This document shows positions 1 through 13,511 of a DNA stretch of 64,000 nt, in pieces; position 1 is the first letter of the stretch, and the number at the start of each line of letters is the position of its first letter. The notes beneath the pieces were generated by a model. It saw only the letters and a list, made by a program, of their open reading frames with translations. It ran no database searches and was not told the origin of the DNA. This DNA is from a virus (Duplodnaviria > Caudoviricetes): the IMG/VR virus record IMGVR_UViG_3300028603_000021, positions 32,001 through 96,000 of that record. One strand, written 5' to 3'. The position numbers and the translations under genes are program-made.

Positions 1-509
1 ATATCCACCACAAATTGGACGTAGTAACCATCGGCTCTTTTTAAGAGCCTGACTCTGCGAATTAAATCCTCTGGGTAGTGGTGAATGTCGTTAGTTCCGA
101 TAAGGCGCAGTTTTCCTATGTTGTTTTTATCGGTGAAGGTAATAGATTTCCCCTCAACCTTCCACCCAGACTGTTTATACTCTACGCTTCGCATTGATTT
201 AAACTTGGGATACCCAACTGGTTTTTGTCCGGTCTTAACACGGTCGTAGAATCTAGAGATTGCTGCCCAAGCTCTTTCTGATGCCGCCTGAACTGCGGTT
301 GAGTTAAGCTGACCTGCCCATTCAAACTCCTTGCGTAGTTGCGTGGTATATTTGTACAAATCATACTTACCTACCTTGGTATCCGAATCTTTCGCATCCA
401 TCCAAAGTCGTAAGCACTTGTTACGAACAAACCCGGCAGTCCGGATAGCCGCGTCTATAGTAGCAGCCTGTGCTGGTTTTGTTCTTGCTTTGTACTCAAT
501 TATAATCAC
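1..509 (-). CDS. tnpB: IS200/IS605-family TnpB (RNA-guided endonuclease), N-terminal part; runs off window edge; absent from ORF track
   Basis: Manual translation from GTG at 509: MIIIEYKARTKPAQAATIDAAIRTAGFVRNKCLRLWMD...LNSTAVQAASERAWAAISRFY...GYPKFK...RSVEYKQSGWK...RRVRLLKRADGYYVQFVVD, typical of the TnpB N-terminus; TATAAT 6 nt upstream (leaderless). Confidence 0.9.
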   Translation of the reverse strand, partial: MIIIEYKARTKPAQAATIDAAIRTAGFVRNKCLRLWMDAKDSDTKVGKYDLYKYTTQLRKEFEWAGQLNSTAVQAASERAWAAISRFYDRVKTGQKPVGYPKFKSMRSVEYKQSGWKVEGKSITFTDKNNIGKLRLIGTNDIHHYPEDLIRRVRLLKRADGYYVQFVVD

Positions 510-591
510 GTGTTAATTATACACGTTCTTACGCTGGAAAAGCAAGCGCAATTCATCCCATGACTGAAGTCACGGGCGTTCTTGCTTCGTC
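1..591 (-). mobile_element. IS605/IS1341-like element; left end, no tnpA upstream of tnpB
   Basis: Subterminal hairpin CCCATGACTGAAGTCACGGG (557-576) inside a larger AGCAAG..CTTGCT stem; TTAC (minus strand, 592-595) abuts the end, as for IS608-like targets. Confidence 0.75.
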
Positions 592-687
592 GTAAAAGAA
601 GATAGATACCACTCAGCATCAAGAGTACCTATCGCGTCTAGGATATTATTCTGATAAAGCTCGTCGATCATAGCTATCGCCTTTCTG

Positions 688-777
688 TGGCGGAGGAGCA
701 GGGGGTCGAACCCTGACCGCTGTTACACGGGCACGTTTAGCAAACGTGTGCGACGAGCCACTATTCGCCTCTCCTCC
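688..777 (-). tRNA. tRNA-Ser(GCT)
   Basis: Cloverleaf GGAGGAG/CTCCTCC, anticodon arm CACGT-TTGCTAA-ACGTG, long variable arm, GGTTCGAC T-loop, encoded CCA. Confidence 0.93.
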
Positions 778-800
778 TCAACGCTTGTTTTTTGTCTTGG

Positions 801-1127
801 CTAGACTTTCGTCCACTCGATAATCTCTACCATCCTAGTCGTCTTCTTGGCAACTTCCTCGGGCTCACCGATATCATATTCGTTTTCCTGATTTTCTGTC
901 AACCCCACACTGTATGGGAACCCATAGTAACGCCCGGTTTCATTAGAACGAAAAACCGCCAGCATATACCTATGCCACCTGCCAGAATCAGTTTCTACTG
1001 TGTCAACTAAGTCAAACTCGTCGTTACCGTCATACACCATGTCTTCCGGATATTCCTCAAGCGCCACCCTCAATTTCTCTAGGTCGTTATTTACCGGCTT
1101 TACAGCTATTCCCATCACAAACACCAT
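801..1127 (-). CDS. hypothetical phage protein
   Basis: 108-aa acidic ORF with GAAAGGA RBS, co-oriented with neighbours. Confidence 0.7.
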   Translation of the reverse strand: MVFVMGIAVKPVNNDLEKLRVALEEYPEDMVYDGNDEFDLVDTVETDSGRWHRYMLAVFRSNETGRYYGFPYSVGLTENQENEYDIGEPEEVAKKTTRMVEIIEWTKV

Positions 1128-1134
1128 CCTTTCT

Positions 1135-1326
1135 TTATCTTAGCAGCGCGTAATAGGCAATAACGGCTATCACCAGCACTATACTAAGCACCATCTTGAT
1201 TAATTCGTCCTTCAGCATAAACTTCTCGCCTACAACCACAAATAGCATCATCCCGAGAAAAAGATATGCGCCCCACATATTGTGCAGGCTCCACACGTCA
1301 TCCCCACTTGACCACGTAAAGATCAA
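1135..1326 (-). CDS. small membrane protein (true start probably internal)
   Basis: Two hydrophobic segments. Confidence 0.5.
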   Translation of the reverse strand: MIFTWSSGDDVWSLHNMWGAYLFLGMMLFVVVGEKFMLKDELIKMVLSIVLVIAVIAYYALLR

Positions 1327-1567
1327 AGTTAGAGTTAGTAGGTATCCTGTCTACGCTGTACCCTAGAGCCCCCAGAGAACTCAGCTCAGCACCTGTGAGG
1401 TTGCGCAAAAGAAGCTGAGTATCTCCGTCAGCAATCGCTCTGAGAAGTTTCCTGCTAACCGCAGAGGCGTGCTTCGAAACTTCTCTAGCATAGTCGGCAG
1501 ACACAACGATAGGTGGTGTAGCTTGTTTCACCGAAGCGCCAAACACCTTAGAACCACTCTTTATCAT
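1298..1567 (-). CDS. hypothetical protein
   Basis: AGGAGGAGG RBS directly after tRNA-Lys CCA. Confidence 0.65.
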   Translation of the reverse strand: MIKSGSKVFGASVKQATPPIVVSADYAREVSKHASAVSRKLLRAIADGDTQLLLRNLTGAELSSLGALGYSVDRIPTNSNFDLYVVKWG

Positions 1568-1579
1568 TTCCCTCCTCCT

Positions 1580-1655
1580 TGGTGCGCCCTGTAGGATTCG
1601 AACCTACAAATCCACAGATTAAAAGTCTGTTGCCTTACCGTTTGGCTAAGGACGC
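1580..1655 (-). tRNA. tRNA-Lys(TTT)
   Basis: Anticodon arm ACAGA-CTTTTAA-TCTGT, GGTTCGAATCC, ACCA end. Confidence 0.95.
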
Positions 1656-1692
1656 ATGAGGTAATATAGCGTGCATAAAGATGAGAAATATG

Positions 1693-1769
1693 TGGTGGCT
1701 AGAAGTGGAATTGAACCACTGACACCCCGCTCTTCAGGCGGGTGCTCTACCAGACTGAGCTATCTAGCC
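1693..1769 (-). tRNA. tRNA-Phe(GAA)
   Basis: Anticodon arm CCCGC-CTGAAGA-GCGGG, GGTTCAATTCC, ACCA end. Confidence 0.95.
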
Positions 1770-1773
1770 GTGT

Positions 1774-1848
1774 TGGAGCCCCTTGCAGGAATTGCACCCA
1801 CGTCAGTAGTTTACAAGACTACCGCTCTGCTAATTGAGCTAAAGGGGC
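1774..1848 (-). tRNA. tRNA-Thr(TGT)
   Basis: Anticodon arm GTAGT-CTTGTAA-ACTAC; variant T-loop (TGCAATT); TCCA end. Confidence 0.9.
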
Positions 1849-2111
1849 AGATTTTTGTTGTACGCTTTCTTAACTAGTTCAGCAAGCTCTAGTGCTTGTT
1901 CTTCGCTGAGTATCACTGTTTCTGTCAGAAGGTTTCCATGGCGTAGAATCTGCCATGCTTGCTTAATCCTTCTCCAGGCGCTCGTGCGACTCCTTCCGCT
2001 GTTTCCATACTCCCAGAACGAAAAGTAGATATCGTTTTCTTCTGAGTATTTTTCAACCTCAAGGGAATGGCTAGAACACTCGCACTTGAAGTGCTTTGAC
2101 ACGTGCATCAT
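1839..2111 (-). CDS. hypothetical phage protein
   Basis: CxC-x2-H N-terminus, translationally coupled to upstream ORF. Confidence 0.65.
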   Translation of the reverse strand: MMHVSKHFKCECSSHSLEVEKYSEENDIYFSFWEYGNSGRSRTSAWRRIKQAWQILRHGNLLTETVILSEEQALELAELVKKAYNKNLPL

Positions 2112-2248
2112 TCTTCCTTTTCGTTAGCGTAGATTGCTCGGATAGCAGACTGTGCTTTCTCTTTGGTGGCGTGGTGAGAAACCACTTTTCCAGAATCCTT
2201 CTTGACTACTACCCACTTGTCTCCCTGGCGCTTGACCTTATACGGCAT
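2108..2248 (-). CDS. small basic phage protein (46 aa, below ORF-track cutoff)
   Basis: MPYKVKRQGDKWVVVKKDSGKVVSHHATKEKAQSAIRAIYANEKEE with GGAGG RBS. Confidence 0.7.
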   Translation of the reverse strand: MPYKVKRQGDKWVVVKKDSGKVVSHHATKEKAQSAIRAIYANEKEE

Positions 2249-2260
2249 ATATCCCTCCGA

Positions 2261-2482
2261 TCACGCTTGTATAGCCCACCAAGAGTCTATCATGTAATCT
2301 ATCTCTTGTATAGTGGCTTCGTCTAGCTCCTCTTCCTCGTTCAAGGTAGACGCCAGCTTCATGAGCATCCTTTTCACAAAGTACTCATGAACAGCATCAC
2401 TGTTAGGGGCGCTTTCTGAATACTGCCAAGCTCTTTCTAGACCAGTAGAGACAGCATACATGACTAACTCAGTCAGTGTCAC
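2261..2482 (-). CDS. hypothetical protein
   Basis: GGAGG RBS, GTG start. Confidence 0.6.
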   Translation of the reverse strand: MTLTELVMYAVSTGLERAWQYSESAPNSDAVHEYFVKRMLMKLASTLNEEEELDEATIQEIDYMIDSWWAIQA

Positions 2483-2501
2483 ACGATGACCTCCGTTTTG
2501 A

Positions 2502-2585
2502 TGGTAGGAGCGGTGGGAGTCGAACCCACATGCACAAGGCGACAGATTTTAAGTCTGTTCTGTAAACCAGTTCCAGCACGCTCCC
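2502..2585 (-). tRNA. tRNA-Leu(TAA)
   Basis: Anticodon arm ACAGA-CTTAAAA-TCTGT, variable arm present, ACCA end. Confidence 0.93.
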
Positions 2586-2591
2586 AAAAGT

Positions 2592-2669
2592 TGGTGTCCG
2601 TGGCTGGATTTGAACCAGCACATTTTACGGGTCTAAGCCGTAATCCTCTGCCAGTTGGGATACACGGAC
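2592..2669 (-). tRNA. tRNA-Leu(TAG), short variable region
   Basis: Anticodon arm TACGG-CTTAGAC-CCGTA, 6-nt variable loop, GGTTCAAATCC, ACCA end. Confidence 0.88.
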
Positions 2670-2673
2670 ATGC

Positions 2674-2883
2674 CTAGTATTCGTCCTCGTATTCATCCTC
2701 ATCGTCTTCATACCCATAGTAACTTACTGGACGGCTGGTTATAATCCTCCCATGGCAGTAAGGACACGCTGGAAGATCGTCTACCACGCCCTTAACTGGC
2801 TCAGCAAACTCACCATCACACGAAGTATACCACGTATCCTCGTCATATACCCAGAAACAAGCATCTCTGTCAGTCACTATCAT
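2674..2883 (-). CDS. small Zn-ribbon-like protein with acidic tail
   Basis: C..C and CPYC motifs. Confidence 0.6.
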   Translation of the reverse strand: MIVTDRDACFWVYDEDTWYTSCDGEFAEPVKGVVDDLPACPYCHGRIITSRPVSYYGYEDDEDEYEDEY

Positions 2884-2905
2884 AGTTTCCCCTTATCCTT
2901 GCCGA

Positions 2906-2939
2906 AGATAATTCCGCCCGAAGCATCACTCCGGGCGGG
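2906..2939 (-). terminator. probable intrinsic terminator closing the tRNA-Met/ribozyme unit
   Basis: CCGCCCGGAG-TGATG-CTTCGGGCGG hairpin followed by AATTATCTT (weak U-tract). Confidence 0.55.
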
Positions 2940-2961
2940 TCTAGAAAGGAGGTAGTACTTT

Positions 2962-3011
2962 GGTCTTTGGTTTGAATCCAGACACGCCACGTGGAGGCAG
3001 ACCTTGTGTCC
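2962..3011 (-). ncRNA. minimal HDV-like (theta-type) self-cleaving ribozyme #1
   Basis: GGACAC-AA-GGUCU-GCC-UCCACGU-GGC-GUGUCU-GG-AUUCAAA-CCAA-AGACC: P1 with G1-U wobble, P2, P3, L3 with CC:GG P1.1, J4/2 cytidine; no P4. Confidence 0.85.
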
Positions 3012-3089
3012 GTTTGGCCTCCGAAGAGGCAGATGCCGATACTTCCTAGGAGCTTTCGACACCCCTTGCACCCGTCGATGCAAGCTGGT

Positions 3090-3165
3090 TGGTTGCGCGG
3101 GAGGGATTCGAACCCACCTTAAGCAGCTTATGAGGCTGATGAACACACCAGTATTCTTCCGCGCA
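3090..3165 (-). tRNA. tRNA with CAT anticodon (Met; fMet or Ile2 not resolved)
   Basis: TGCGCGG/CCGCGCA acceptor, loop CTCATAA, GGTTCGAATCC, ACCA end. Confidence 0.85.
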
Positions 3166-3175
3166 TCGTTGTCAC

Positions 3176-3204
3176 AGTATACATCACCTCTGACTGTATG
3201 TCAA
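3176..3204 (-). promoter_or_regulatory. sigma70-type promoter for tRNA-Met/ribozyme unit
   Basis: TTGACA-17 nt-TATACT. Confidence 0.8.
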
Positions 3205-3429
3205 GTAGTACGATGCTGGTATTCCCTGCCAGATAAAGTCTTCATCTTCTTCGTCGCGTATATCTATCTCGGCCTCACACATGCTCATCCCACCTGTGTC
3301 CTCTTTACACCATCCGCAAATTAAATGCTCCCATGCATAATCTTCCGCTTCCTTCAGCGAGTAAAACTTTTTGTCTATATCTCTGCTCGGTAGCTCGATT
3401 ATATACATAGAATCCTTTCTTTGGGACAA
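3184..3429 (-). CDS. hypothetical protein (likely start ~3408)
   Basis: Acidic ORF, GAAAGGA RBS after tRNA-His. Confidence 0.55.
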   Translation of the reverse strand: MSQRKDSMYIIELPSRDIDKKFYSLKEAEDYAWEHLICGWCKEDTGGMSMCEAEIDIRDEEDEDFIWQGIPASYYLTYSQR

Positions 3430-3496
3430 CCGGAGGGAGTTGAACCCTCACCAACTCCGTCACAAGGAGGTATGCAGCCATTACACCACGGTTGAC
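3422..3496 (-). tRNA. tRNA-His(GTG)
   Basis: Loop TTGTGAC, encoded G-1 opposite C73, CCA end. Confidence 0.9.
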
Positions 3497-3672
3497 ATGC
3501 GGCTAAAGGTCTCAGCAGGCTCTTCATAGAAAGGGTCTACCATTTCAGCTCCGGGTCGGTACTCAAGGATTCCAAGGTTGACCAGAAGCTGCCCGAAACG
3601 CTGCTGTGGATGTCTCTCCACCTGTTGCGATAGGCTCTCTACTATCTTTCTGTTGTACTCTTGTCTGGTCAT
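3481..3672 (-). CDS. hypothetical phage protein
   Basis: HPQQRFGQLL..DPFYEE motif recurrent in small phage proteins; AAGGAG RBS. Confidence 0.65.
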   Translation of the reverse strand: MTRQEYNRKIVESLSQQVERHPQQRFGQLLVNLGILEYRPGAEMVDPFYEEPAETFSRMSTVV

Positions 3673-3688
3673 TTCTTTCTCCTTAAGT

Positions 3689-3762
3689 TGGCTGCCCCGC
3701 CAGGGCTCGAACCTAGATTAACCGAGTCAAAGTCGGTTGTCGTGCCATTAGACCACGAGGCA
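3689..3762 (-). tRNA. tRNA-Gln(TTG)
   Basis: Anticodon arm ACCGA-CTTTGAC-TCGGT, U1-A72 pair, GCCA end. Confidence 0.93.
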
Positions 3763-3817
3763 ATGTTGTATTGCAGTTCTTATACTATCGGAATAGAGCG
3801 TGAGAATGATGATAACT

Positions 3818-4579
3818 TCAAACTCTTAAAAGTCCTAAATCTAATTCTTTATGGTGGTTAGGACAGAGGTACACGAGATTTTTTGGGTCATTTATTTCCT
3901 CCATAGTGGCTTCGTCGGGGAATGAGGAGATATTTTTTATATGGCATAGCTCCACATAGGTGTCATACCCACAAGACCTGCACACTTTTACCAGCCCTCT
4001 TCTCGCTGCCAACCTTCTTGCTCCAGTGCGGATTCTTACGTAGTACTCGTGGGACACGTTGTTGCACATCTCTTTGAACTGACCAAACGTTTTAGAGAGA
4101 TAATCCTCATCGGCCTTCTCTTTCATCCCTGCTATCCTACAGTCAGAACATTGCTTTGACGTTGACAATATATTCTTCCCGCAGTAACAAGTGCCACTTT
4201 TCCCAGACTTAGCTGCTACTTTCTTGTGATTTACATAATGAACACCCTTAGTTCGTTTGGGATGTAGAGTGTTGTTATAAGTAGCCGAGCAGCTGCTGTT
4301 GCAAAATACCTTTCCCTTGGCGTCTGCTTCTCGTCTAAGTACGTCTTCTCCGCAGTTATCACAGCTAAGCACTAGTCGCGGGACTGCCCGAGACTTTGCC
4401 GCACAAGCAGCACTACAAAATAATGATCTGCCGTGCTTTATCGCGGCTTGTATCTTAGACTTTTTCCTAGTTACGTCCAATCCGCAACCTACGCAGTTTA
4501 TCGCCAGATGGTCTGAAGATTTCAGATGTCTTAATCTAGAGATAATTTCCTGGTAACAGTCGGGGGTCACTAGTAACAC
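3818..4579 (-). CDS. HNH homing endonuclease with Cys-rich Zn-finger repeats, inserted in tRNA cluster
   Basis: Multiple CxxC / FCSxxC repeats; C-terminal CRSCG..ELCHIK..NLVYLCPNHH. Confidence 0.85.
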   Translation of the reverse strand: MLLVTPDCYQEIISRLRHLKSSDHLAINCVGCGLDVTRKKSKIQAAIKHGRSLFCSAACAAKSRAVPRLVLSCDNCGEDVLRREADAKGKVFCNSSCSATYNNTLHPKRTKGVHYVNHKKVAAKSGKSGTCYCGKNILSTSKQCSDCRIAGMKEKADEDYLSKTFGQFKEMCNNVSHEYYVRIRTGARRLAARRGLVKVCRSCGYDTYVELCHIKNISSFPDEATMEEINDPKNLVYLCPNHHKELDLGLLRV

Positions 4580-4628
4580 AAAGATATGTTATCACAGCTG
4601 TAGTCGAGAGTCAAGTTTTCGAACTAGA

Positions 4629-4704
4629 TGGTAGCGGGTGTAGGATTTGAACCTCTCTTCACCCTTCCAAAGGGTGTATGCTCCCAGTTTACATCACACC
4701 CACT
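4629..4704 (-). tRNA. tRNA-Pro(TGG), atypical acceptor/T geometry
   Basis: Anticodon arm CACCC-TTTGGAA-GGGTG, GGTTCAAATCC, ACCA; folds best as 9-bp acceptor plus 3-bp T stem. Confidence 0.75.
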
Positions 4705-4731
4705 GCGTGGACTCAAACATAGATGAAGATA

Positions 4732-5042
4732 GAGCCTTTTAACGCCATGCTCAGGGCTAACCCTATAAAACCTTTTAACGCCATGTCCGGGGCTGCTCTT
4801 TGTATACCACCCTCTAGCTCCGCTCGTGAAGAAGCTGAGGGGTAAGATAAGAGCAGTTTTAAGTCTTACTCAGGACTAGGAGGTAGGTGGAGCAGTTTAA
4901 TTGCCTTACTCAGGGCGGTCAAGCCGATTCCGGGTGTGCTAGCACTCAGGTTTCCAGACTCCTACCGGGTTAACCTGATACAGCTGTTACCCGCGCCGCT
5001 GCTTGGGGCGGAGCCTTTTTCAGTCGTGCTCAGGACTTGGTT
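4732..5042 (-). ncRNA. putative ncRNA built of repeated H-type pseudoknot modules
   Basis: Five 26-27-nt imperfect repeats (4732-4757, 4768-4793, 4851-4876, 4890-4916, 5011-5036) plus a degenerate one (4981-5010), with compensatory changes; ORF-free; own promoter. Confidence 0.75.
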
Positions 5043-5048
5043 TATCTA

Positions 5049-5077
5049 ATTATAGCAACTTTAGTCGTTCTTGTCAA
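5049..5077 (-). promoter_or_regulatory. perfect consensus sigma70 promoter driving the pseudoknot array
   Basis: TTGACA-17 nt-TATAAT with extended TGn; predicted start ~5042. Confidence 0.88.
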
Positions 5078-5258
5078 ACGGCGGGTCTAGAAGACCCTTA
5101 CCACGCGAAAGCTTGCTGAATATCAAGTAGAGGTAGAAGGGTATCCCAACCGGCCACACGAAGAAGTAGAGAGTATCCTCTGGTTCAAAACCTCCCCTTC
5201 CGCGAGCCAGCCCGAACAGCATCCCACACACCCAAAGTCCTATCAAGTAGATTCCCAT
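5061..5258 (-). CDS. small membrane protein
   Basis: Two hydrophobic segments, AAGGAGG RBS. Confidence 0.65.
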   Translation of the reverse strand: MGIYLIGLWVCGMLFGLARGRGGFEPEDTLYFFVWPVGIPFYLYLIFSKLSRGKGLLDPPFDKND

Positions 5259-5295
5259 TGCTTTACCTCCTTTCCTCTATACTATCACTAGTCAG

Positions 5296-5547
5296 CTACG
5301 GTGTCAACTTCTTTGCAAGGTTAAGGACAGCTTCTTCTTCTGTAGCCCCGAATCCTTCAACCTCAAGGCTGTCATCGTCTGGAAAGATAGCACGGGCTAC
5401 ATAGCCACTTTCTGTTTCCTCTACCTGAACCATATAGCTGCTGACCTTTTCAGTGGTCGTAGTGACCTTAGTACCGAACTCAGACCACACATACGAAGCA
5501 GCCGCTGCCCCTAGAAGAAAAGCTCCCAGCATCTCAAACCACGGCAT
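5296..5547 (-). CDS. hypothetical protein, N-terminal TM and HicB-like C-terminus
   Basis: GYVARA..GFGATEEEAVLNL resembles the HicB fold. Confidence 0.55.
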   Translation of the reverse strand: MPWFEMLGAFLLGAAAASYVWSEFGTKVTTTTEKVSSYMVQVEETESGYVARAIFPDDDSLEVEGFGATEEEAVLNLAKKLTP

Positions 5548-5855
5548 CAGAGGCTGTTCCTGAACTTAGACCAAGACACGCTCCATATGGTATAAAAACC
5601 GTCCACCAGAAGAGCCACATCGTCTACAGAAATTGTTTCTCCACCCTTAGTGAGCTGGATACCCTTAGCAATGGGCGGAATTAATTCAGTGACGCTCTCA
5701 CCGTCTGAGAGCACCCAAGACTCAAGCTCTTGGTCATACCAGCTGCTCCTCGGGTTGTCTGTGAAGAACCACGCTGAGCTATCACCAGCATCTATAAACA
5801 ACGTACCAAACTCTCCTTCAAAATCTAGTCTCATGCTCACCTTCTTTCTGACCAC
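5547..5855 (-). CDS. hypothetical protein
   Basis: Coupled ORF. Confidence 0.55.
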   Translation of the reverse strand: MVRKKVSMRLDFEGEFGTLFIDAGDSSAWFFTDNPRSSWYDQELESWVLSDGESVTELIPPIAKGIQLTKGGETISVDDVALLVDGFYTIWSVSWSKFRNSL

Positions 5856-5888
5856 TTTCGTGATAAGATAATTCCCGCTTTAGTGATA

Positions 5889-6191
5889 TCACTGCTCAGC
5901 ATAAGAAACATGAGGAACCCACCCAGCAGTCTCAAGCTCTGTACACACAGCTGGGAACAATTCATCTGGCACGCGGATACGGAAGATATACACCGGCTCC
6001 CCGAACGGATTTATGCCAACGTCTAGCAACGGGTAGGTAGTCATAGTGGTTTCTATAAACAACGACTGCACAGCGATCTCTGTTTCGTCGCTGCGCTTCT
6101 TGAAAACCCTCTCAGAGGTTGTGTCGGCTACTGTTACATAGCCGACAACCTGCGTAAGCTCTAGCTCTACCGGGTACCCATCACCTTTCAT
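5889..6191 (-). CDS. hypothetical protein
   Basis: Coupled ORF. Confidence 0.6.
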   Translation of the reverse strand: MKGDGYPVELELTQVVGYVTVADTTSERVFKKRSDETEIAVQSLFIETTMTTYPLLDVGINPFGEPVYIFRIRVPDELFPAVCTELETAGWVPHVSYAEQ

Positions 6192-6363
6192 TGTTAGGTG
6201 CCTTCACCTCACCAAACAAACCTTCTTGGATGCCTACCAACTTGTGGCCTCTGTATTTCTTAGACACCCACTGCTCAGCATCGTCCCATCCGAAGAAGAA
6301 TTTATTCAGGGTGATAAGCTTCCTGTGTCCTTTCTTGTCTTCGATAATCAGCTCGTTATTCAT
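6181..6363 (-). CDS. hypothetical protein
   Basis: GAGGAG RBS. Confidence 0.6.
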   Translation of the reverse strand: MNNELIIEDKKGHRKLITLNKFFFGWDDAEQWVSKKYRGHKLVGIQEGLFGEVKAPNNER

Positions 6364-6365
6364 GG

Positions 6366-6545
6366 TTACTCCTCTTCGTCTTCGTAGTACTCGTCGTACA
6401 GACGCCTCACTGCTGCTTGTGGGGAGTACCCAGCATCAAACATATCTCTGAGTTCAGGCTGGGACACCTCCCCAAGCTCCATGCCTAGCATAGCCCACAG
6501 CGACGTGTCTAGCTCGTCGAGCCAGGTATCAAAATCCCACTCCAT
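6366..6545 (-). CDS. small acidic protein (59 aa, below cutoff)
   Basis: MEWDFDTWLDELDTSLW...YEDEEE, start overlaps rIIB stop. Confidence 0.6.
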   Translation of the reverse strand: MEWDFDTWLDELDTSLWAMLGMELGEVSQPELRDMFDAGYSPQAAVRRLYDEYYEDEEE

Positions 6546-7573
6546 CAGAGAGCCTCGATGTGGTACCTGTAGACAGCGTTAGCAGTGTGGCTCAGGTCAA
6601 GCTTCTCAGCGAAGTAGTATTCTAGGTTGTCTCTGCCATAACCCAAGGCCTCAGCAAGGTCAGCATAGCTGTTCGCTACTTTACCCTTCATGCTGTAGCT
6701 AGAGACAGCACCCTTAAGCTCTGCAATAAAATCCTCGTAGTAGCCGTCTTCATCCTCTTGGATGTCGTAGTCTTCTGCGCTGAGGTCGTCGTTGTAGAAA
6801 AGGTCATCCCACGCCTCGTTGAGTTCTGAGGTTCTTACTACATAGCGGCAGACACGCACCTTGGCATTATCGTAATCAAGGGGCACCGACACTACGTCTC
6901 GTGGGTTTACCTCCACACCCACCAAGCGCGGCGCAAACCCAGTCGCGTACTGGTAGCTGCCGACGTGCAACCCGACATCACAGGCTTTTGTTGCGTCGGA
7001 GCTTACTCGGCTGCGTGGAAACTCAACCACGTTACCTACCGCATTATCCAAGCGTCCATGCTCGATAACTTCCCCGTTCACGATGCCGTAACCAGCATGG
7101 ACTGAAAAACCATCCGTGTTTACGCCCTTGTAAGCAAGGAAATTTCCCGAAGCCGTGATAGAAAGACCGTGCCTCGTCAAGAAGTTGTAGAGCTGCTCAC
7201 GGCTCTCCGCGTTAGGGTTCTGCATCAAGTTCTCAAGGAAGTTGAGCATAGGGGTGATGTTTTCGTAGCCGCGCCTGTAGCGTTCGGCAATCGCATCACT
7301 CAGAACCCCAGGAAGAACTTCACCATCGAAGTAGATTCCTCCGTTGTCACCGTATGAGATACGGTCTGTGAGTGCTTCGAGGTAGGTAGCGATGTTACTC
7401 CCAGGTGTGTTGAGCAAGTCACGAAGGTCTTCTTCGCTCACTCCGGAAATCAGAGCCTCGACAATCTTCCGAGAGCGTGGGTGGTCTCCACGGATCACGT
7501 GGAGACTCCCGTCCTCTAGAGTTACCGATGCTGTCGTGTTGTCGTTGCTTGAAGTTATAAGGTATGAATACAT
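6545..7573 (-). CDS. rIIB: rIIB-like protein
   Basis: ITASGNFLAYKGV..VGNVVEFPR..ACDVGLHVG..VEVNPRDVVSVPLDY..KVRVCRY motifs; follows rIIA. Confidence 0.88.
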   Translation of the reverse strand: MYSYLITSSNDNTTASVTLEDGSLHVIRGDHPRSRKIVEALISGVSEEDLRDLLNTPGSNIATYLEALTDRISYGDNGGIYFDGEVLPGVLSDAIAERYRRGYENITPMLNFLENLMQNPNAESREQLYNFLTRHGLSITASGNFLAYKGVNTDGFSVHAGYGIVNGEVIEHGRLDNAVGNVVEFPRSRVSSDATKACDVGLHVGSYQYATGFAPRLVGVEVNPRDVVSVPLDYDNAKVRVCRYVVRTSELNEAWDDLFYNDDLSAEDYDIQEDEDGYYEDFIAELKGAVSSYSMKGKVANSYADLAEALGYGRDNLEYYFAEKLDLSHTANAVYRYHIEAL

Positions 7574-7575
7574 TT

Positions 7576-9525
7576 TTATCCTTCTCCTCTCTCGTTGATG
7601 TAGTTCTGAAGCTCTTCTAAGCCTGCGCTGAACAGAAGTGGGTATTCTTTTCTCGCCTCTTCCAGAGCCTCCTTTATCTCTTTCTCAGCCGCTTGCAGCC
7701 TATCACGCACCTCTGTGAGAACCGTGTGACTTATTCCGCTGCCCTTCAGCCTGAGCAAGGTGGCGATTGTTTTCTGCGTAGTATCCCCGTAGGAGGGAAA
7801 ACCACGAAGCTTACCCAGAGCCTCAGAGCCGCCCTTGGTGCTGCGGAAAGCCGAGTAGTTTGTGAACATGTAGCTGCTCACGTAGTTTTTCCTAGCGAAC
7901 ATCATGAGGGCTTCCTTCGAGATGCTCACGGCAGAAAGTGTGTCGTCAACAAACTTCGAAACGTGCCTAGCGCCCTTGAGCCCCTTGTAGACGTGCTCAG
8001 TGTCCTTCTTAGACACGTGCATGTTAGTCGGGATGATAGTCGTAACAGACGCTAGCTCCTTAACCACGGGAAGGTACTTATCCCAGTCGTTTCTGTTCCC
8101 GTAGACGACCTTTGTAAGGTCAGCATTCTTCTTATTAACTAAAACTTGCTTCCAGTCGCGTGTGAAGACGCGGAGCCTGGGTTCCTTCTTCTCACCCGGT
8201 GCCCTAGAGTCAAGCTTGATGCTGTTGATTTCTTCGTGAGACACGTACATGCGCTCTGGAATAACCTCAGAGGAGGGTTTCGCGCCTGTGATGGCGTACA
8301 CAGTGCACCCATTGTCCTGGGCGTACTTCTTTATCTTGCGTGCGAAATAGCCACTGGGCGCACCTTTGTAGAAAACTATATCACCAGAGCCCCTGTAGTG
8401 AGAGTAGTAGGGAAAAGCTGTGTAGCTCTTGGCTCTCTCCTTTGAATCCGGGGTGTACTTCGTGCACTGAAAGTTAAGTTCGTCTGGACGATATTTCAGA
8501 CTCCTGCCCTTGTAGTGTGGGTCAAGGTTAAAATACAACGCCCCGCCCTGCCACGCCTTCTGCGCAATCTGGTATGCCTCAAGCAGTGTTTCTGCTTCTT
8601 CTACCTCTTTTTCAACCTTAGACTGAAGCAGGGCTTCCGCTTGGGCAATTGCTTGTTTGACAAATTCTTTTGTGCGCTTAGTGGCATGAAGCTCCTCTCG
8701 GCTGGGGGTAAAATCTACAGCCCCTAGTGGAGCAAACACGAGAAGGCTGTTTGCCCGGTTCTTTTCGTCCCAGTCTAAATCTAACGCTGAGTTGCGGAAC
8801 GGGTATGCCACATTCCCCATCACAACTGCCCCGCCGTTATCGACCAGATATATAGAGTCAGACAACTTTTCCGCCGCGTCAACCGCGCTGACTACAGAGA
8901 AAGTCCCGTTGAACTCTGGCATAACATCCCAGTACTGGAAAATGTTCTTCATCTCTGTGTGGAACTGCGAGAGATTTGTATACCCGTTACCAGGAAGTGG
9001 GATGCTAACCAGGACACCGTTGGGCTCGTCTGTTATCGACGCAGACAGCTGAGTAAGGGTAGGGACACCCGCGTCATTCTTGTAAATCGAGTAAACCCCC
9101 TTGTTGCCGTCTTTGACAGTAGTCAGGGTGAACTGGTCTACGTAGGTCAGCGCAGACTTGCACCCCAAACCAAGCTGCCCGGTGGTGTCTGCCGACGTGC
9201 GCTTGGTCGAAGCCCCGTAAGCTCCGTAGATATCAAAGATTTCATCGTGGCTGAGACCTAGGCCAAAGTCCTGCACCGAAAACACGGGGTTAAGAGCGGT
9301 GGGTACACCAACCTTAATCGGCAGGTTGGGCTTGCCAGCAGCTACATGAGAGTCCATGGCGTTCGTGGAGTACTCTCGGATAACCGCTGCCACAGGGTTA
9401 GAGTAAAGGTTGGTGAGAACGTTCATCAGGTGTGGCAGGCTTGCTGTGTCGATTGTCATACCTTGCGTGCGCAAGGTTCCGCCAGACCGGATAACGCTCT
9501 CTTGGTTGGTATTAGGGATGCTCAA
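7576..9525 (-). CDS. rIIA: rIIA-like protein (GHKL ATPase domain)
   Basis: LYSNPVAAVIREYSTNAMDSH, DFGLGLS, STK, GQLGLGCKS, TPSREEL. Confidence 0.9.
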   Translation of the reverse strand: MSIPNTNQESVIRSGGTLRTQGMTIDTASLPHLMNVLTNLYSNPVAAVIREYSTNAMDSHVAAGKPNLPIKVGVPTALNPVFSVQDFGLGLSHDEIFDIYGAYGASTKRTSADTTGQLGLGCKSALTYVDQFTLTTVKDGNKGVYSIYKNDAGVPTLTQLSASITDEPNGVLVSIPLPGNGYTNLSQFHTEMKNIFQYWDVMPEFNGTFSVVSAVDAAEKLSDSIYLVDNGGAVVMGNVAYPFRNSALDLDWDEKNRANSLLVFAPLGAVDFTPSREELHATKRTKEFVKQAIAQAEALLQSKVEKEVEEAETLLEAYQIAQKAWQGGALYFNLDPHYKGRSLKYRPDELNFQCTKYTPDSKERAKSYTAFPYYSHYRGSGDIVFYKGAPSGYFARKIKKYAQDNGCTVYAITGAKPSSEVIPERMYVSHEEINSIKLDSRAPGEKKEPRLRVFTRDWKQVLVNKKNADLTKVVYGNRNDWDKYLPVVKELASVTTIIPTNMHVSKKDTEHVYKGLKGARHVSKFVDDTLSAVSISKEALMMFARKNYVSSYMFTNYSAFRSTKGGSEALGKLRGFPSYGDTTQKTIATLLRLKGSGISHTVLTEVRDRLQAAEKEIKEALEEARKEYPLLFSAGLEELQNYINERGEG

Positions 9526-11273: not shown

Positions 11274-11635
11274 TGGTGGACTCGTCGGCTTCGCAGCCGA
11301 GTCCTGAACTCTTATCCCAAGGTTGTCTACATGTGTATCTGTTTTATATGTTCGCCATGAAAACAGCAAAACCGGCTAGCTCTATGTACGTGCCTTCTTA
11401 TCAGAGCTTTTCAGGGGCACGCCCTCTAAGTTGACGGTTACAGAGTAGAGGAGTCGTCTGTAACCCGCCTAGCTTACGCGGCTAGGGCTTGAGGCTGTGA
11501 CGCTCCGAGGAAAACCCACGGAAGCGTTTCAGAAGTTTTGTCAGTTAGACTTTTTCCAGATTTTTAACGAGGCCATCCGGAACCCTCGACATGCTAACCT
11601 TGTCTTCAGAGCCCAGTCGAAACTGTTTCGAGCCC
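11274..11635 (-). ncRNA. ssrA: tmRNA
   Basis: GGGCTCG/CGAGTCC-ACCA acceptor with G3-U70, TTCGAC, GCATGTCGAGG pk1 region, tag ORF 11542-11474 (A)DKTSETLPWVFLGASQPQALAA*. Confidence 0.93.
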
Positions 11636-12200: not shown

Positions 12201-13511
12201 TCACAGCACAAACAGCAGCACAACCGAAAATGCGGCTATAATCCAGAGAGTCAGTGGCATTGTTTTTCTCATGGCAGCGCGGATTACCGTATAGGACACG
12301 ATGCCAAGGACTATACCTGTGGTGATGCTGTATGTGAACGGGATAGCTACCATGGCGATGAAAGCGGGTACTGAGTTAGAGTAGTCTCCCCAGTCCATGT
12401 CCTTGAGCGTGGTAATCATGAACAAACCGACAAGCACGAGTACGGGGGCGGTGGCTACGCTCGGGATAAACACCAGCAGCGGAGCAAAGAACATGAAGGG
12501 CAGAAACAACAGTCCTGTTACGACAGCAGTAAGACCCGACCTACCACCTTCGGCTACCCCAGAAGCAGACTCGATGTACGCAGTACCAGGCGAGCTGCCG
12601 GTAAGACCTGAGATAGTTGTAGACACAGCGTCTACCATCAGCGCTTTCCCGATGTTCTTAGCTTCTCCCTTGTCGTCTACAAGACCTGCGGCCTTAGAGA
12701 CACTCATGAAGGTTGATATACTATCGAACATGTCAGTAAACAGAAGAGCAAACACAGGAGAGATAACAGCCACAGTCATCAAGCCAGCGAAGTCCAGTGC
12801 GAAGAACGCCTCTAGAGAGGGCGTAGCTACTACAGCAGTAGGTAGAGTCACACCTGTAGCGGCGGAAAACATGGGAACCAGCGCAGCTAAGACGGCCACC
12901 CCGATAACCGAGATTATCAAAGCACCCCTCACATGCAGTGCCAGCAGGATAGCGGCAACGACTAGACCGATCAAAAACAACCAGAAGACCGGGGAAGCCC
13001 CACCAAACGAAACCAAGGTGGCGGCGTTAGCTATGACAACTCCCGAGTTCTGTAAGCCGATGAACGCTAGGAACAGCCCGATACCGCCTGCGACTCCTGA
13101 CCTTATGCCTAGGGGTACAGCAGCTGCAATCTTTTCTCTGAGCCGCAGCTGTGGTAATGAGATTATCAAGAACACCACACCTGACAGAAACACAGCTGCT
13201 AGCGCGGTCTGCCATGTGAGTCCCAAGGTCAGCACCAACGTATACGTAAAGAAGGCGTTCAGCCCCATACCGGGGGCTAGGGCAATCGGTAAGTTAGCGA
13301 CGAACCCCATCAAGATGCTAGATAACCCCGCTACCAGCACCGTAGCAAACAGTGCAGCACTGAGTGGTATCCCAGCATCCGACAGGATGAGTGGGTTAAC
13401 GATGATGATATACGCCATCGTCAGGAAGGTGGTTATACCAGCCAGAACCTCGGTACGGATGTTCGTACCAAGGCTGTCCAGCTGGAATCGTTTAGTTAGC
13501 CAGTTTGTCAT
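12201..13511 (-). CDS. NCS2/AzgA-family purine (guanine/hypoxanthine/adenine) permease
   Basis: RTEVLAGITTFLTMAYIIIVNP, ALAPGMGLNAFF, YIESASGVAEGGRSGLT; many TM helices. Confidence 0.93.
   Translation of the reverse strand: MTNWLTKRFQLDSLGTNIRTEVLAGITTFLTMAYIIIVNPLILSDAGIPLSAALFATVLVAGLSSILMGFVANLPIALAPGMGLNAFFTYTLVLTLGLTWQTALAAVFLSGVVFLIISLPQLRLREKIAAAVPLGIRSGVAGGIGLFLAFIGLQNSGVVIANAATLVSFGGASPVFWLFLIGLVVAAILLALHVRGALIISVIGVAVLAALVPMFSAATGVTLPTAVVATPSLEAFFALDFAGLMTVAVISPVFALLFTDMFDSISTFMSVSKAAGLVDDKGEAKNIGKALMVDAVSTTISGLTGSSPGTAYIESASGVAEGGRSGLTAVVTGLLFLPFMFFAPLLVFIPSVATAPVLVLVGLFMITTLKDMDWGDYSNSVPAFIAMVAIPFTYSITTGIVLGIVSYTVIRAAMRKTMPLTLWIIAAFSVVLLFVL

Follow-up and report, generated by a model that had tools for sequence, protein, structure and literature searches.

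An array of coremin-like mini-pseudoknots, supported by covariation, leads tRNAs in a phage

A promoter and five small RNA modules precede a phage tRNA gene

The DNA that we analyzed (hereafter the window) is a 64,000-nt stretch, bases 32001-96000 of IMG/VR record IMGVR_UViG_3300028603_000021, a 190,018-bp virus record rated complete. It carries rIIA and rIIB homologues, an RNA ligase, ten tRNAs and a tmRNA, mostly on the minus strand. The nearest rIIA relatives are actinophages, the Streptomyces BE/BK-cluster phages, at only 32-35% identity. On the minus strand at 5077-5049, there is a sigma-70-type promoter, TTGACA-17-TATAAT, which is a 12/12 match to consensus with an extended -10 TG and the only such match in 1-8000. 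Its -35 box overlaps the last codons of a 65-aa ORF (5258-5061), and its predicted start is near 5042. About 6 nt after this predicted start begins the first of five modules of 26-27 nt, which are followed by tRNA-Pro(UGG) at 4704-4629 (36.5 bits in Rfam), 27 nt downstream of the last module, and then by an HNH endonuclease ORF. We found no minus-strand ORF of 30 aa or more in 4732-5060. Since no minus-strand terminator lies between 5049 and 4629, the modules and the tRNA are presumably co-transcribed.

The five modules lie on the minus strand at 5036-5011 (m1, GUCCUGAGCACGACUGAAAAAGGCUC), 4916-4890 (m2, GCCCUGAGUAAGGCAAUUAAACUGCUC), 4876-4851 (m3, GUCCUGAGUAAGACUUAAAACUGCUC), 4793-4768 (m4, GCCCCGGACAUGGCGUUAAAAGGUUU), and 4757-4732 (m5, GCCCUGAGCAUGGCGUUAAAAGGCUC). 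Each can be described as an H-type pseudoknot with a 3-bp stem 1 (S1, GYC/GRC), a first loop CU, a stem 2 (S2) of 4-5 bp between the hairpin loop and the 3' tail, and an A-rich third loop, GUUAAA(A/C). In m1, S1 is GUC/GAC and S2 is GAGC/GCUC, in m2 they are GCC/GGC and GAGUA/UGCUC, while in m4 S2 is GGAC/GUUU. The spacers are unequal (94, 13, 57 and 10 nt). The 94-nt spacer (5010-4917; MFE -32.9 kcal/mol) and the 57-nt spacer (4850-4794, one hairpin) fold into hairpins, but not more stably than shuffled sequence (z -0.94 and -1.23, respectively), and neither matches an Rfam family, which led us to reject the idea that they are cargo sRNAs. The 3' AAGAGCA of the 57-nt spacer can alternatively pair with the UGCUCUU at the 3' edge of m3. 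The 13-nt spacer (4889-4877, CACCUACCUCCUA) is unstructured and is an anti-Shine-Dalgarno-like tract. Its 12-nt complement CTAGGAGGTAGG occurs once exactly, and twice with one mismatch, elsewhere on the minus strand of the genome, although the significance of this is doubtful.

We next determined whether this arrangement exceeds chance. The pattern GYCCYGRRYAHGRC-N5-12-GYTY matches only these five sites in the whole 190,018-bp genome, and the reversed control matches none. A covariance model built from the family described below (R1) scores m1 to m5 at 37.3, 25.1, 37.9, 28.6 and 40.7 bits (E 1e-8 to 2e-4), while the next hit in the window scores 13.8 bits. Over the whole genome, R1 adds one sixth copy, UUCCUGAGCAAGAAGUAAAACUGCUC, at G000:C1:20120-20145 (coordinates of the 190-kb record; 22.4 bits), which fills the 33-nt spacer between tRNA-Ile and tRNA-Cys, starts 2 nt after the CCA, and has a compensated outer pair, U1-A14. 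The observation behind the original prediction, a promoter-led array of five covarying modules with unequal spacers, therefore holds. The additional degenerate copy that it listed was not recovered by the model at E ≤ 10, and only a CCUGAGUG fragment at 4950-4941 (within the 94-nt spacer) and a GAGCA just 5' of m4 resemble parts of a module.

Both helices of the pseudoknot covary

Within the genome, m4 and m5 are a recent, diverged duplicate pair (83% identity over 30 nt). They differ at five module positions, four of which lie in stem 2, and all four keep pairing (6:26 G-C to G·U, 7:25 A-U to G·U, and 8:24 G-C to A-U). In stem 1, m1/m3 and m2/m4/m5 swap U2-A13 for C2-G13. The stem switches that had been predicted are therefore real.

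We then extended this analysis to many loci. Since MAFFT left-aligned modules of unequal length, we used the subset of 49 distinct 26-nt modules. In these, the structure (((..[[[[[.))).......]]]]] gives 93.6% standard pairs, four of eight pairs show double-sided changes, 0 of 500 shuffles reach the observed covariation score, and slid controls give at most 45% pairing. Covariation in stem 2 is seen at 7:25, 8:24 and 9:23. Pairs G1-C14 and C3-G12 are invariant, while pair 2:13 is U-A in 37, C-G in 11 and U-G in 1 of the 49 modules, and the unpaired bases C4, U5 and A18-A20 are invariant. Since our module filter required stem 2, we repeated the test on candidates chosen by the 5' half and an AAA spacer only. 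With A7, the tail is GCUY in 69 cases and GCCY in 4, while with G7 it is GCUY in 0 and GCCY in 9 (p = 2e-9, four loci). Similarly, GAAC goes with GUUY, and GGAC goes with GUUU. Finally, G·U pairs at 6:26 (16 of 49) and 9:23 (11 of 49), which would be C·A mismatches on the other strand, fix the functional strand as the RNA sense of the minus strand and led us to reject a DNA-level repeat.

The modules belong to a widespread family absent from Rfam

We wondered how widespread such modules might be. We therefore performed two-module pattern scans of IMG/VR, JGI metagenomes and GTDB genomes. A first scan mostly hit pentapeptide-repeat genes (ADLSKANL...), which were removed by requiring the GY prefix and stem 2. 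Filtering for the full knot gave about 55 unrelated loci (numbered with the prefix L). All 56 module clusters are intergenic and lie on the strand of the flanking ORFs, and their contexts vary, including 1) two to four modules between a terminator-like hairpin and the scaffold and major-head genes in two lineages of small siphophages (the L013 family and L097), 2) one or two modules between successive small phage genes, sometimes 6-13 nt after the stop codon (L095, L103, L124 and L153), 3) modules just before a consensus promoter (L010 and L172), and 4) ORF-free arrays of four to eight modules interleaved with hairpins (L109, L144, L118 and L123), with up to eight modules in L109 and L144. In 9 of 40 phage clusters, the module starts within 15 nt of a stop codon. 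A promoter directly upstream is seen only in this window, in 1 of 43 clusters, and tRNA linkage is not general since most module-bearing loci have no tRNA.

The family is also cellular. R1 hits 18 of 151 sampled genomes of the phylum Actinomycetota at 29-41 bits, or 17 of 150 without one unpublished genome, which enters only this tally and none of the locus-level results. In Actinomycetota, the module directly follows an SD-led His/Cys micro-ORF of 18-20 codons (core ..KRFx(V/I)PRxAHCxEGC..). In 11 of 17 loci, the stop codon of this peptide lies at module position -1, 5 or 11, always in the same frame, while in two more it lies 5 nt upstream of the module. In about half of these loci, an intrinsic terminator follows. 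RNase J is present in 3 of 3 Aquicultor-lineage genomes that carry the module, whereas one other carrier genome, a 1.7-Mb Methylococcales MAG of unknown completeness, shows none.

Searches for relatives of the locus itself were negative. A distant-mode blastn of 4300-5500 against 50,697 phage records gave no match, and a rIIB-based search of IMG/VR found no related loci, which precluded a comparison of the leader with orthologues. The Streptomyces BE/BK phages nearest by rIIA do not carry the module, with none in NootNoot and one weak hit in Muntaha. Rfam 15, searched at gathering scores over the window and at E ≤ 10 over 4300-5400 and on L009, L010 and L013, returned only tRNAs, the tmRNA and noise.

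The module is almost identical in sequence to the coremin motif

A literature search by sequence words returned only AFLP-adapter noise. We compared the module with the coremin motif, or xrRNA-C, of beny-, cucumo- and other eukaryotic RNA viruses, which stops RNA-degrading enzymes. The coremin sequence, rebuilt from the numbering in PMC6546385, is (C)GUCCGAAGACGUUAAACUAC, that is, (C)GUC-CGAA-GAC-GUUAAACUAC plus a downstream hairpin. It aligns to the family consensus GUCCUGAGCAUGACGUUAAACUGCUC with 19 of 20 identities plus four extra loop bases. The two share the GUC/GAC hairpin stem with a C-G closing pair (3-5 bp in coremin), a loop that starts with Y and has A near its end, an identical GUUAAAC(U) spacer, and pairing of the loop with the bases after AAA. 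In coremin, the adenines are proposed to dock in the stem-1 minor groove, and tandem copies also occur in those viruses. The spacers of the window modules read GUUAAAA (m4 and m5), UUAAAAC (m3), AAUUAAAC (m2) and UGAAAAA (m1). In a "Watson-Crick" coremin variant (xrRNA-WCC), loop bases 6-8 pair with the three bases after AAA, and disruption and restoration of these pairs controls Xrn1 resistance (PMC10321173). This is the loop-to-tail pairing that we see here.

There are also differences. The coremin loop consensus is YGAD (4 nt) or YGNNAD (6 nt), while the module loop is 8 nt, C-U-G-A-G-Y-A-N, which starts with Y and has A at the penultimate place, but with U rather than G as its second base. 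Loops of 6-8 nt are tolerated in the BNYVV coremin context, and the Xrn1-resistant heptaloop CGAGUAA is one U short of the m2/m3 loop CUGAGUAA (PMC10520033). Stem 2 is 4-5 bp rather than 3 bp or non-canonical. Coremin needs a second hairpin (at least 4 bp) directly downstream for Xrn1 resistance. Here only m1 clearly has one, a short hairpin starting 1 nt downstream, while m2 and m4 are followed by the next module after 13 and 10 nt, m3 by a hairpin at about +9, and m5 by nothing clear. Moreover, the carriers are dsDNA phages and bacteria, which lack Xrn1, and the sequence likeness could be convergence on a minimal fold. The module is therefore best described as a long-loop, Watson-Crick-paired coremin-type knot with an extended stem 2. 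We found no published report of it in phages or bacteria. The top-ranked papers of a search for coremin in phages or bacteria do not mention coremin, the papers found on coremin and Xrn1 all concern eukaryotic RNA viruses, and a search for exoribonuclease-resistant RNA with bacteriophage or RNase J returned nothing on a phage xrRNA.

A possible mechanical roadblock in the leader of a tRNA operon

Taken together, our analysis establishes the modules, their covariation, the strand, the promoter, the family and the sequence match to coremin, whereas resistance to nucleases or helicases, co-transcription with the tRNA and release by RNase P are inferred from sequence and by analogy. Our tentative reading, which we prefer to the alternatives without considering it secure, is that the locus encodes a promoter-driven, ORF-free leader RNA of about 340 nt, in which each module is a compact knot resisting being pulled apart by enzymes that thread RNA. 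The first candidate is 5'-to-3' decay by RNase J or 5'-end-dependent RNase E scanning, although ribosomes or Rho are also possible. A flaviviral xrRNA, which has a different fold from coremin, also halts bacterial RNase J1 in vitro, which argues for a general mechanical block (PMC5760640). In this view, m1, at about 6 nt from the 5' end, would deny a 5'-end-dependent nuclease its landing pad and armor the primary transcript of the tRNA-Pro/HNH unit, the later modules would act as fail-safes, and RNase P cleavage at tRNA-Pro would leave a long-lived leader with two hairpin-bearing segments bracketed by knots. The modules in siphophage capsid leaders would be in keeping with this reading, as would the position of m1 at about +6 of a consensus promoter and the near absence of a leader from the tRNA-Met unit of the same window. 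RNase J in the Aquicultor-lineage carriers and the actinophage kinship of rIIA make this enzyme a plausible target, whereas the Methylococcales MAG without RNase J, the lack of a clear downstream hairpin at most modules and possible convergence speak against the reading. Several contexts fit a pure 5'-exonuclease block less well, since mature tRNAs hardly need 5' protection, the Actinomycetota module overlaps the stop codon of the micro-ORF, and some phage modules sit just after stop codons or just before the next promoter, which keeps the direction and the target of the putative roadblock open.

The original prediction, which took the array for a decoy or antitoxin-mimic RNA against defence RNases or, alternatively, for protective brackets around cargo sRNAs, is thus only partly supported. 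It was right about a promoter-driven non-coding RNA, covarying H-type pseudoknots with an A-rich third loop and the lack of an adjacent toxin gene, and its idea of protective brackets is close to the reading that we favor because the module is a near-copy of the coremin exonuclease-blocking motif, but kinship with, or mimicry of, type III antitoxins is not supported.

Exoribonuclease-resistant RNAs have so far been described only in eukaryotic RNA viruses, while here a 26-nt module nearly identical to the plant-virus coremin motif is maintained by compensatory changes in many unrelated phages and in about one in eight sampled Actinomycetota genomes. If it blocks RNase J or RNase E, it would be a general and very compact device for setting RNA lifetimes in bacteria and phages, would explain differential stability within phage operons, and would give synthetic biology a portable 26-nt stabilizer. 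Clear Watson-Crick covariation in hundreds of natural variants would also settle the still unsolved fold of coremin. For this phage, it defines a previously unannotated leader RNA in its tRNA cluster.

Alternative readings

Among the alternatives, which we all consider unlikely, the one that survives best is that the knot is a punctuation or insulator element, marking processing sites or keeping neighboring RNAs (tRNAs or cistrons) from misfolding into each other, perhaps through recognition by an endonuclease rather than as a passive block. The sixth copy fills a tRNA spacer, modules sit between small phage genes and next to hairpins, and different stem-2 sequences within one array would limit cross-pairing. 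However, most tRNA spacers in this genome have no module, no enzyme is known to recognize such a site, and m2 and m3 share the same stem 2.

Slightly less likely is a phage counterpart of flaviviral sfRNA, in which the leader, released from the tRNA precursor by RNase P, would itself be the product, and its five knots would stall and sequester the host 5'-to-3' decay machinery (RNase J or scanning RNase E) or another RNA translocase, slowing host RNA decay globally to the benefit of phage transcripts and reprogramming host RNA turnover during infection. This would imply that the coremin fold is an ancient, cross-kingdom viral device shared by dsDNA phages, bacteria and eukaryotic RNA viruses. 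The tRNA-Met unit in the same window (3204-3090) has almost no leader, with its promoter at 3204-3176 and the tRNA from 3165, and the 340-nt leader is therefore not needed just to make a tRNA, which leaves room for a function of the leader itself. The consensus promoter, the five tandem modules and the recurrence of ORF-free arrays of 4-8 modules in other phage loci are in line with this idea, and in flaviviral tandem xrRNAs several exonuclease-blocking knots likewise lie in series and yield a stable non-coding RNA. However, the idea rests purely on analogy, with no stoichiometric argument or expression data behind it, tandem copies can simply be fail-safes, and the flaviviral fold is different and much larger (a three-way junction ring of about 70 nt) and lies in a 3' UTR rather than in a 5' leader.

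About equally unlikely is a translation- or termination-linked element acting on the ribosome (pausing, termination efficiency, blocking of read-through or re-initiation) or on 3'-to-5' decay so that the upstream ORF keeps its stop codon. The fixed-frame geometry of the Actinomycetota micro-ORF suggests such an interplay with the terminating ribosome, or protection of the ORF's 3' end, rather than 5' protection, and the phage modules close to stop codons also point this way. Moreover, coremin stalls ribosomes and drives -1 frameshifting, also in E. coli, and xrRNA-WCC drives -1 frameshifting without the second hairpin (PMC10321173). However, in this window no ORF runs into the array, the nearest stop is 24 nt upstream, before the -10 box, and four of the five modules are far from any ORF. 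Modules never lie inside long ORFs, so they are not frameshift signals.

A ligand-binding aptamer is improbable. The very small H-type knot with invariant unpaired bases resembles the preQ1-I riboswitch aptamer (RF00522), which is of similar size and has an A-rich tail lying in the stem-1 groove. However, there is no match to RF00522 at E ≤ 10 over 4300-5400 or on L009, L010 and L013 and no other riboswitch match in Rfam, there is no expression platform since modules are followed by other modules, hairpins or a tRNA rather than by an SD, there are up to eight copies in a row, there is no link to queuosine genes, and the downstream genes share no function (tRNA, capsid, lemA and DNA polymerase).

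The least likely reading is the antitoxin mimic or multivalent decoy for ToxN-like or other host RNases. Like ToxI, CptI and TenpI, the modules are short pseudoknotted units with an A-rich loop, present in several copies behind one strong promoter, in a phage rich in anti-defence-type cargo (tRNAs and a tmRNA). However, type III antitoxins are near-identical head-to-tail repeats of constant length (about 34-45 nt) that lie next to their toxin gene and are cut by it, none of which applies here. TRF finds no tandem repeat, the start-to-start spacings are 120, 40, 83 and 36 nt, and copy identities are 67-86%. A search of the 190-kb genome with PF13958 (ToxN), without separate searches for CptN and TenpN, found no match, Rfam gave no match to an antitoxin model in the window, and the same module occurs singly or in pairs in capsid-operon leaders, between small phage genes, in a tRNA spacer and after a bacterial micro-ORF, where an antitoxin decoy makes no sense. 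Its sequence matches coremin, not any antitoxin.

Finally, the 5'-terminal stabilizer stem-loops and RNase III-processed intercistronic hairpins of phage mRNAs, such as the T7 R sites and the SP82 stabilizer, are also intergenic or leader RNA structures that set the differential stability of segments of polycistronic RNAs. Those are simple hairpins or long duplexes recognized by RNase III, while the element here is a 26-nt knot with strongly conserved sequence.

An additional module and an alternative pairing

In addition to the modules in the window, we found a sixth module, UUCCUGAGCAAGAAGUAAAACUGCUC, on the minus strand of the phage genome (G000:C1:20120-20145, corresponding to 1501-1526 of locus L175), which lies outside the window, about 11.9 kb before its first base. 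This module fills the spacer between tRNA-Ile and tRNA-Cys, starting 2 nt after the CCA of the former, and its outer stem-1 pair is compensated to U-A. Within the array itself, the spacer between modules m2 and m3 (window 4877-4889, minus strand), CACCUACCUCCUA, contains an anti-Shine-Dalgarno-like ACCUCCU. When we searched for its 12-nt complement, CTAGGAGGTAGG, we found that it occurs on the minus strand once exactly (G000:C1:15093-15104) and twice with one mismatch, but since SD-like words are common, this may be chance. Furthermore, at window 4851-4794 (minus strand), the 3' edge of m3 (UGCUCUU) can alternatively pair with AAGAGCA just before m4, enclosing the 57-nt spacer hairpin. This alternative pairing would compete with stem 2 of m3.

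Modules in cellular genomes and in ORF-free arrays

We next inspected the module in cellular genomes, using 17 loci (L192-L205, L207, L180, and L182) from Actinomycetota genomes, among them the Aquicultor MAGs. In these genomes, the module follows an SD-led 18-20-aa His/Cys micro-ORF with a core ..KRFxVPRxAHCxEGC.., a peptide for which NCBIfam has no model. In 11 of the 17 loci, the stop codon of the micro-ORF lies at module position -1, 5, or 11 in one fixed frame, and a terminator often follows. Neighboring genes include arsR, lemA-TPM, serS, a PLP-dependent enzyme (PF00291), and a P-type ATPase. A different arrangement is seen in two other module-bearing loci, L109 (rc coordinates 2901-3344) and L144 (rc 1464-1919), which are ORF-free arrays of eight modules. 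In L109, the modules are interleaved with long perfect hairpins, and each block is followed by a tRNA-T-arm-like GGGUUCCAAGCCC segment.

Other features of the window

A 253-aa ORF with an HNH endonuclease domain (window 3818-4579, minus strand) sits between tRNA-Pro and tRNA-Gln inside the tRNA cluster and is possibly a homing endonuclease. A search of the window against Rfam at gathering thresholds reported no ribozyme anywhere in it, including at 2962-3011 on the minus strand, where a minimal HDV-like ribozyme had been proposed, which does not exclude minimal variants lacking a model, but showed that the phage encodes a full-length tmRNA (RF00023, 106.6 bits) at 11274-11635 on the minus strand, although ARAGORN did not call it. 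Finally, an intact 436-aa xanthine/uracil-family permease (window 12201-13511, minus strand; PF00860, 135 bits) lies next to the RNA ligase gene. PHROGs labels its family as "tail protein," which is probably a misannotation.
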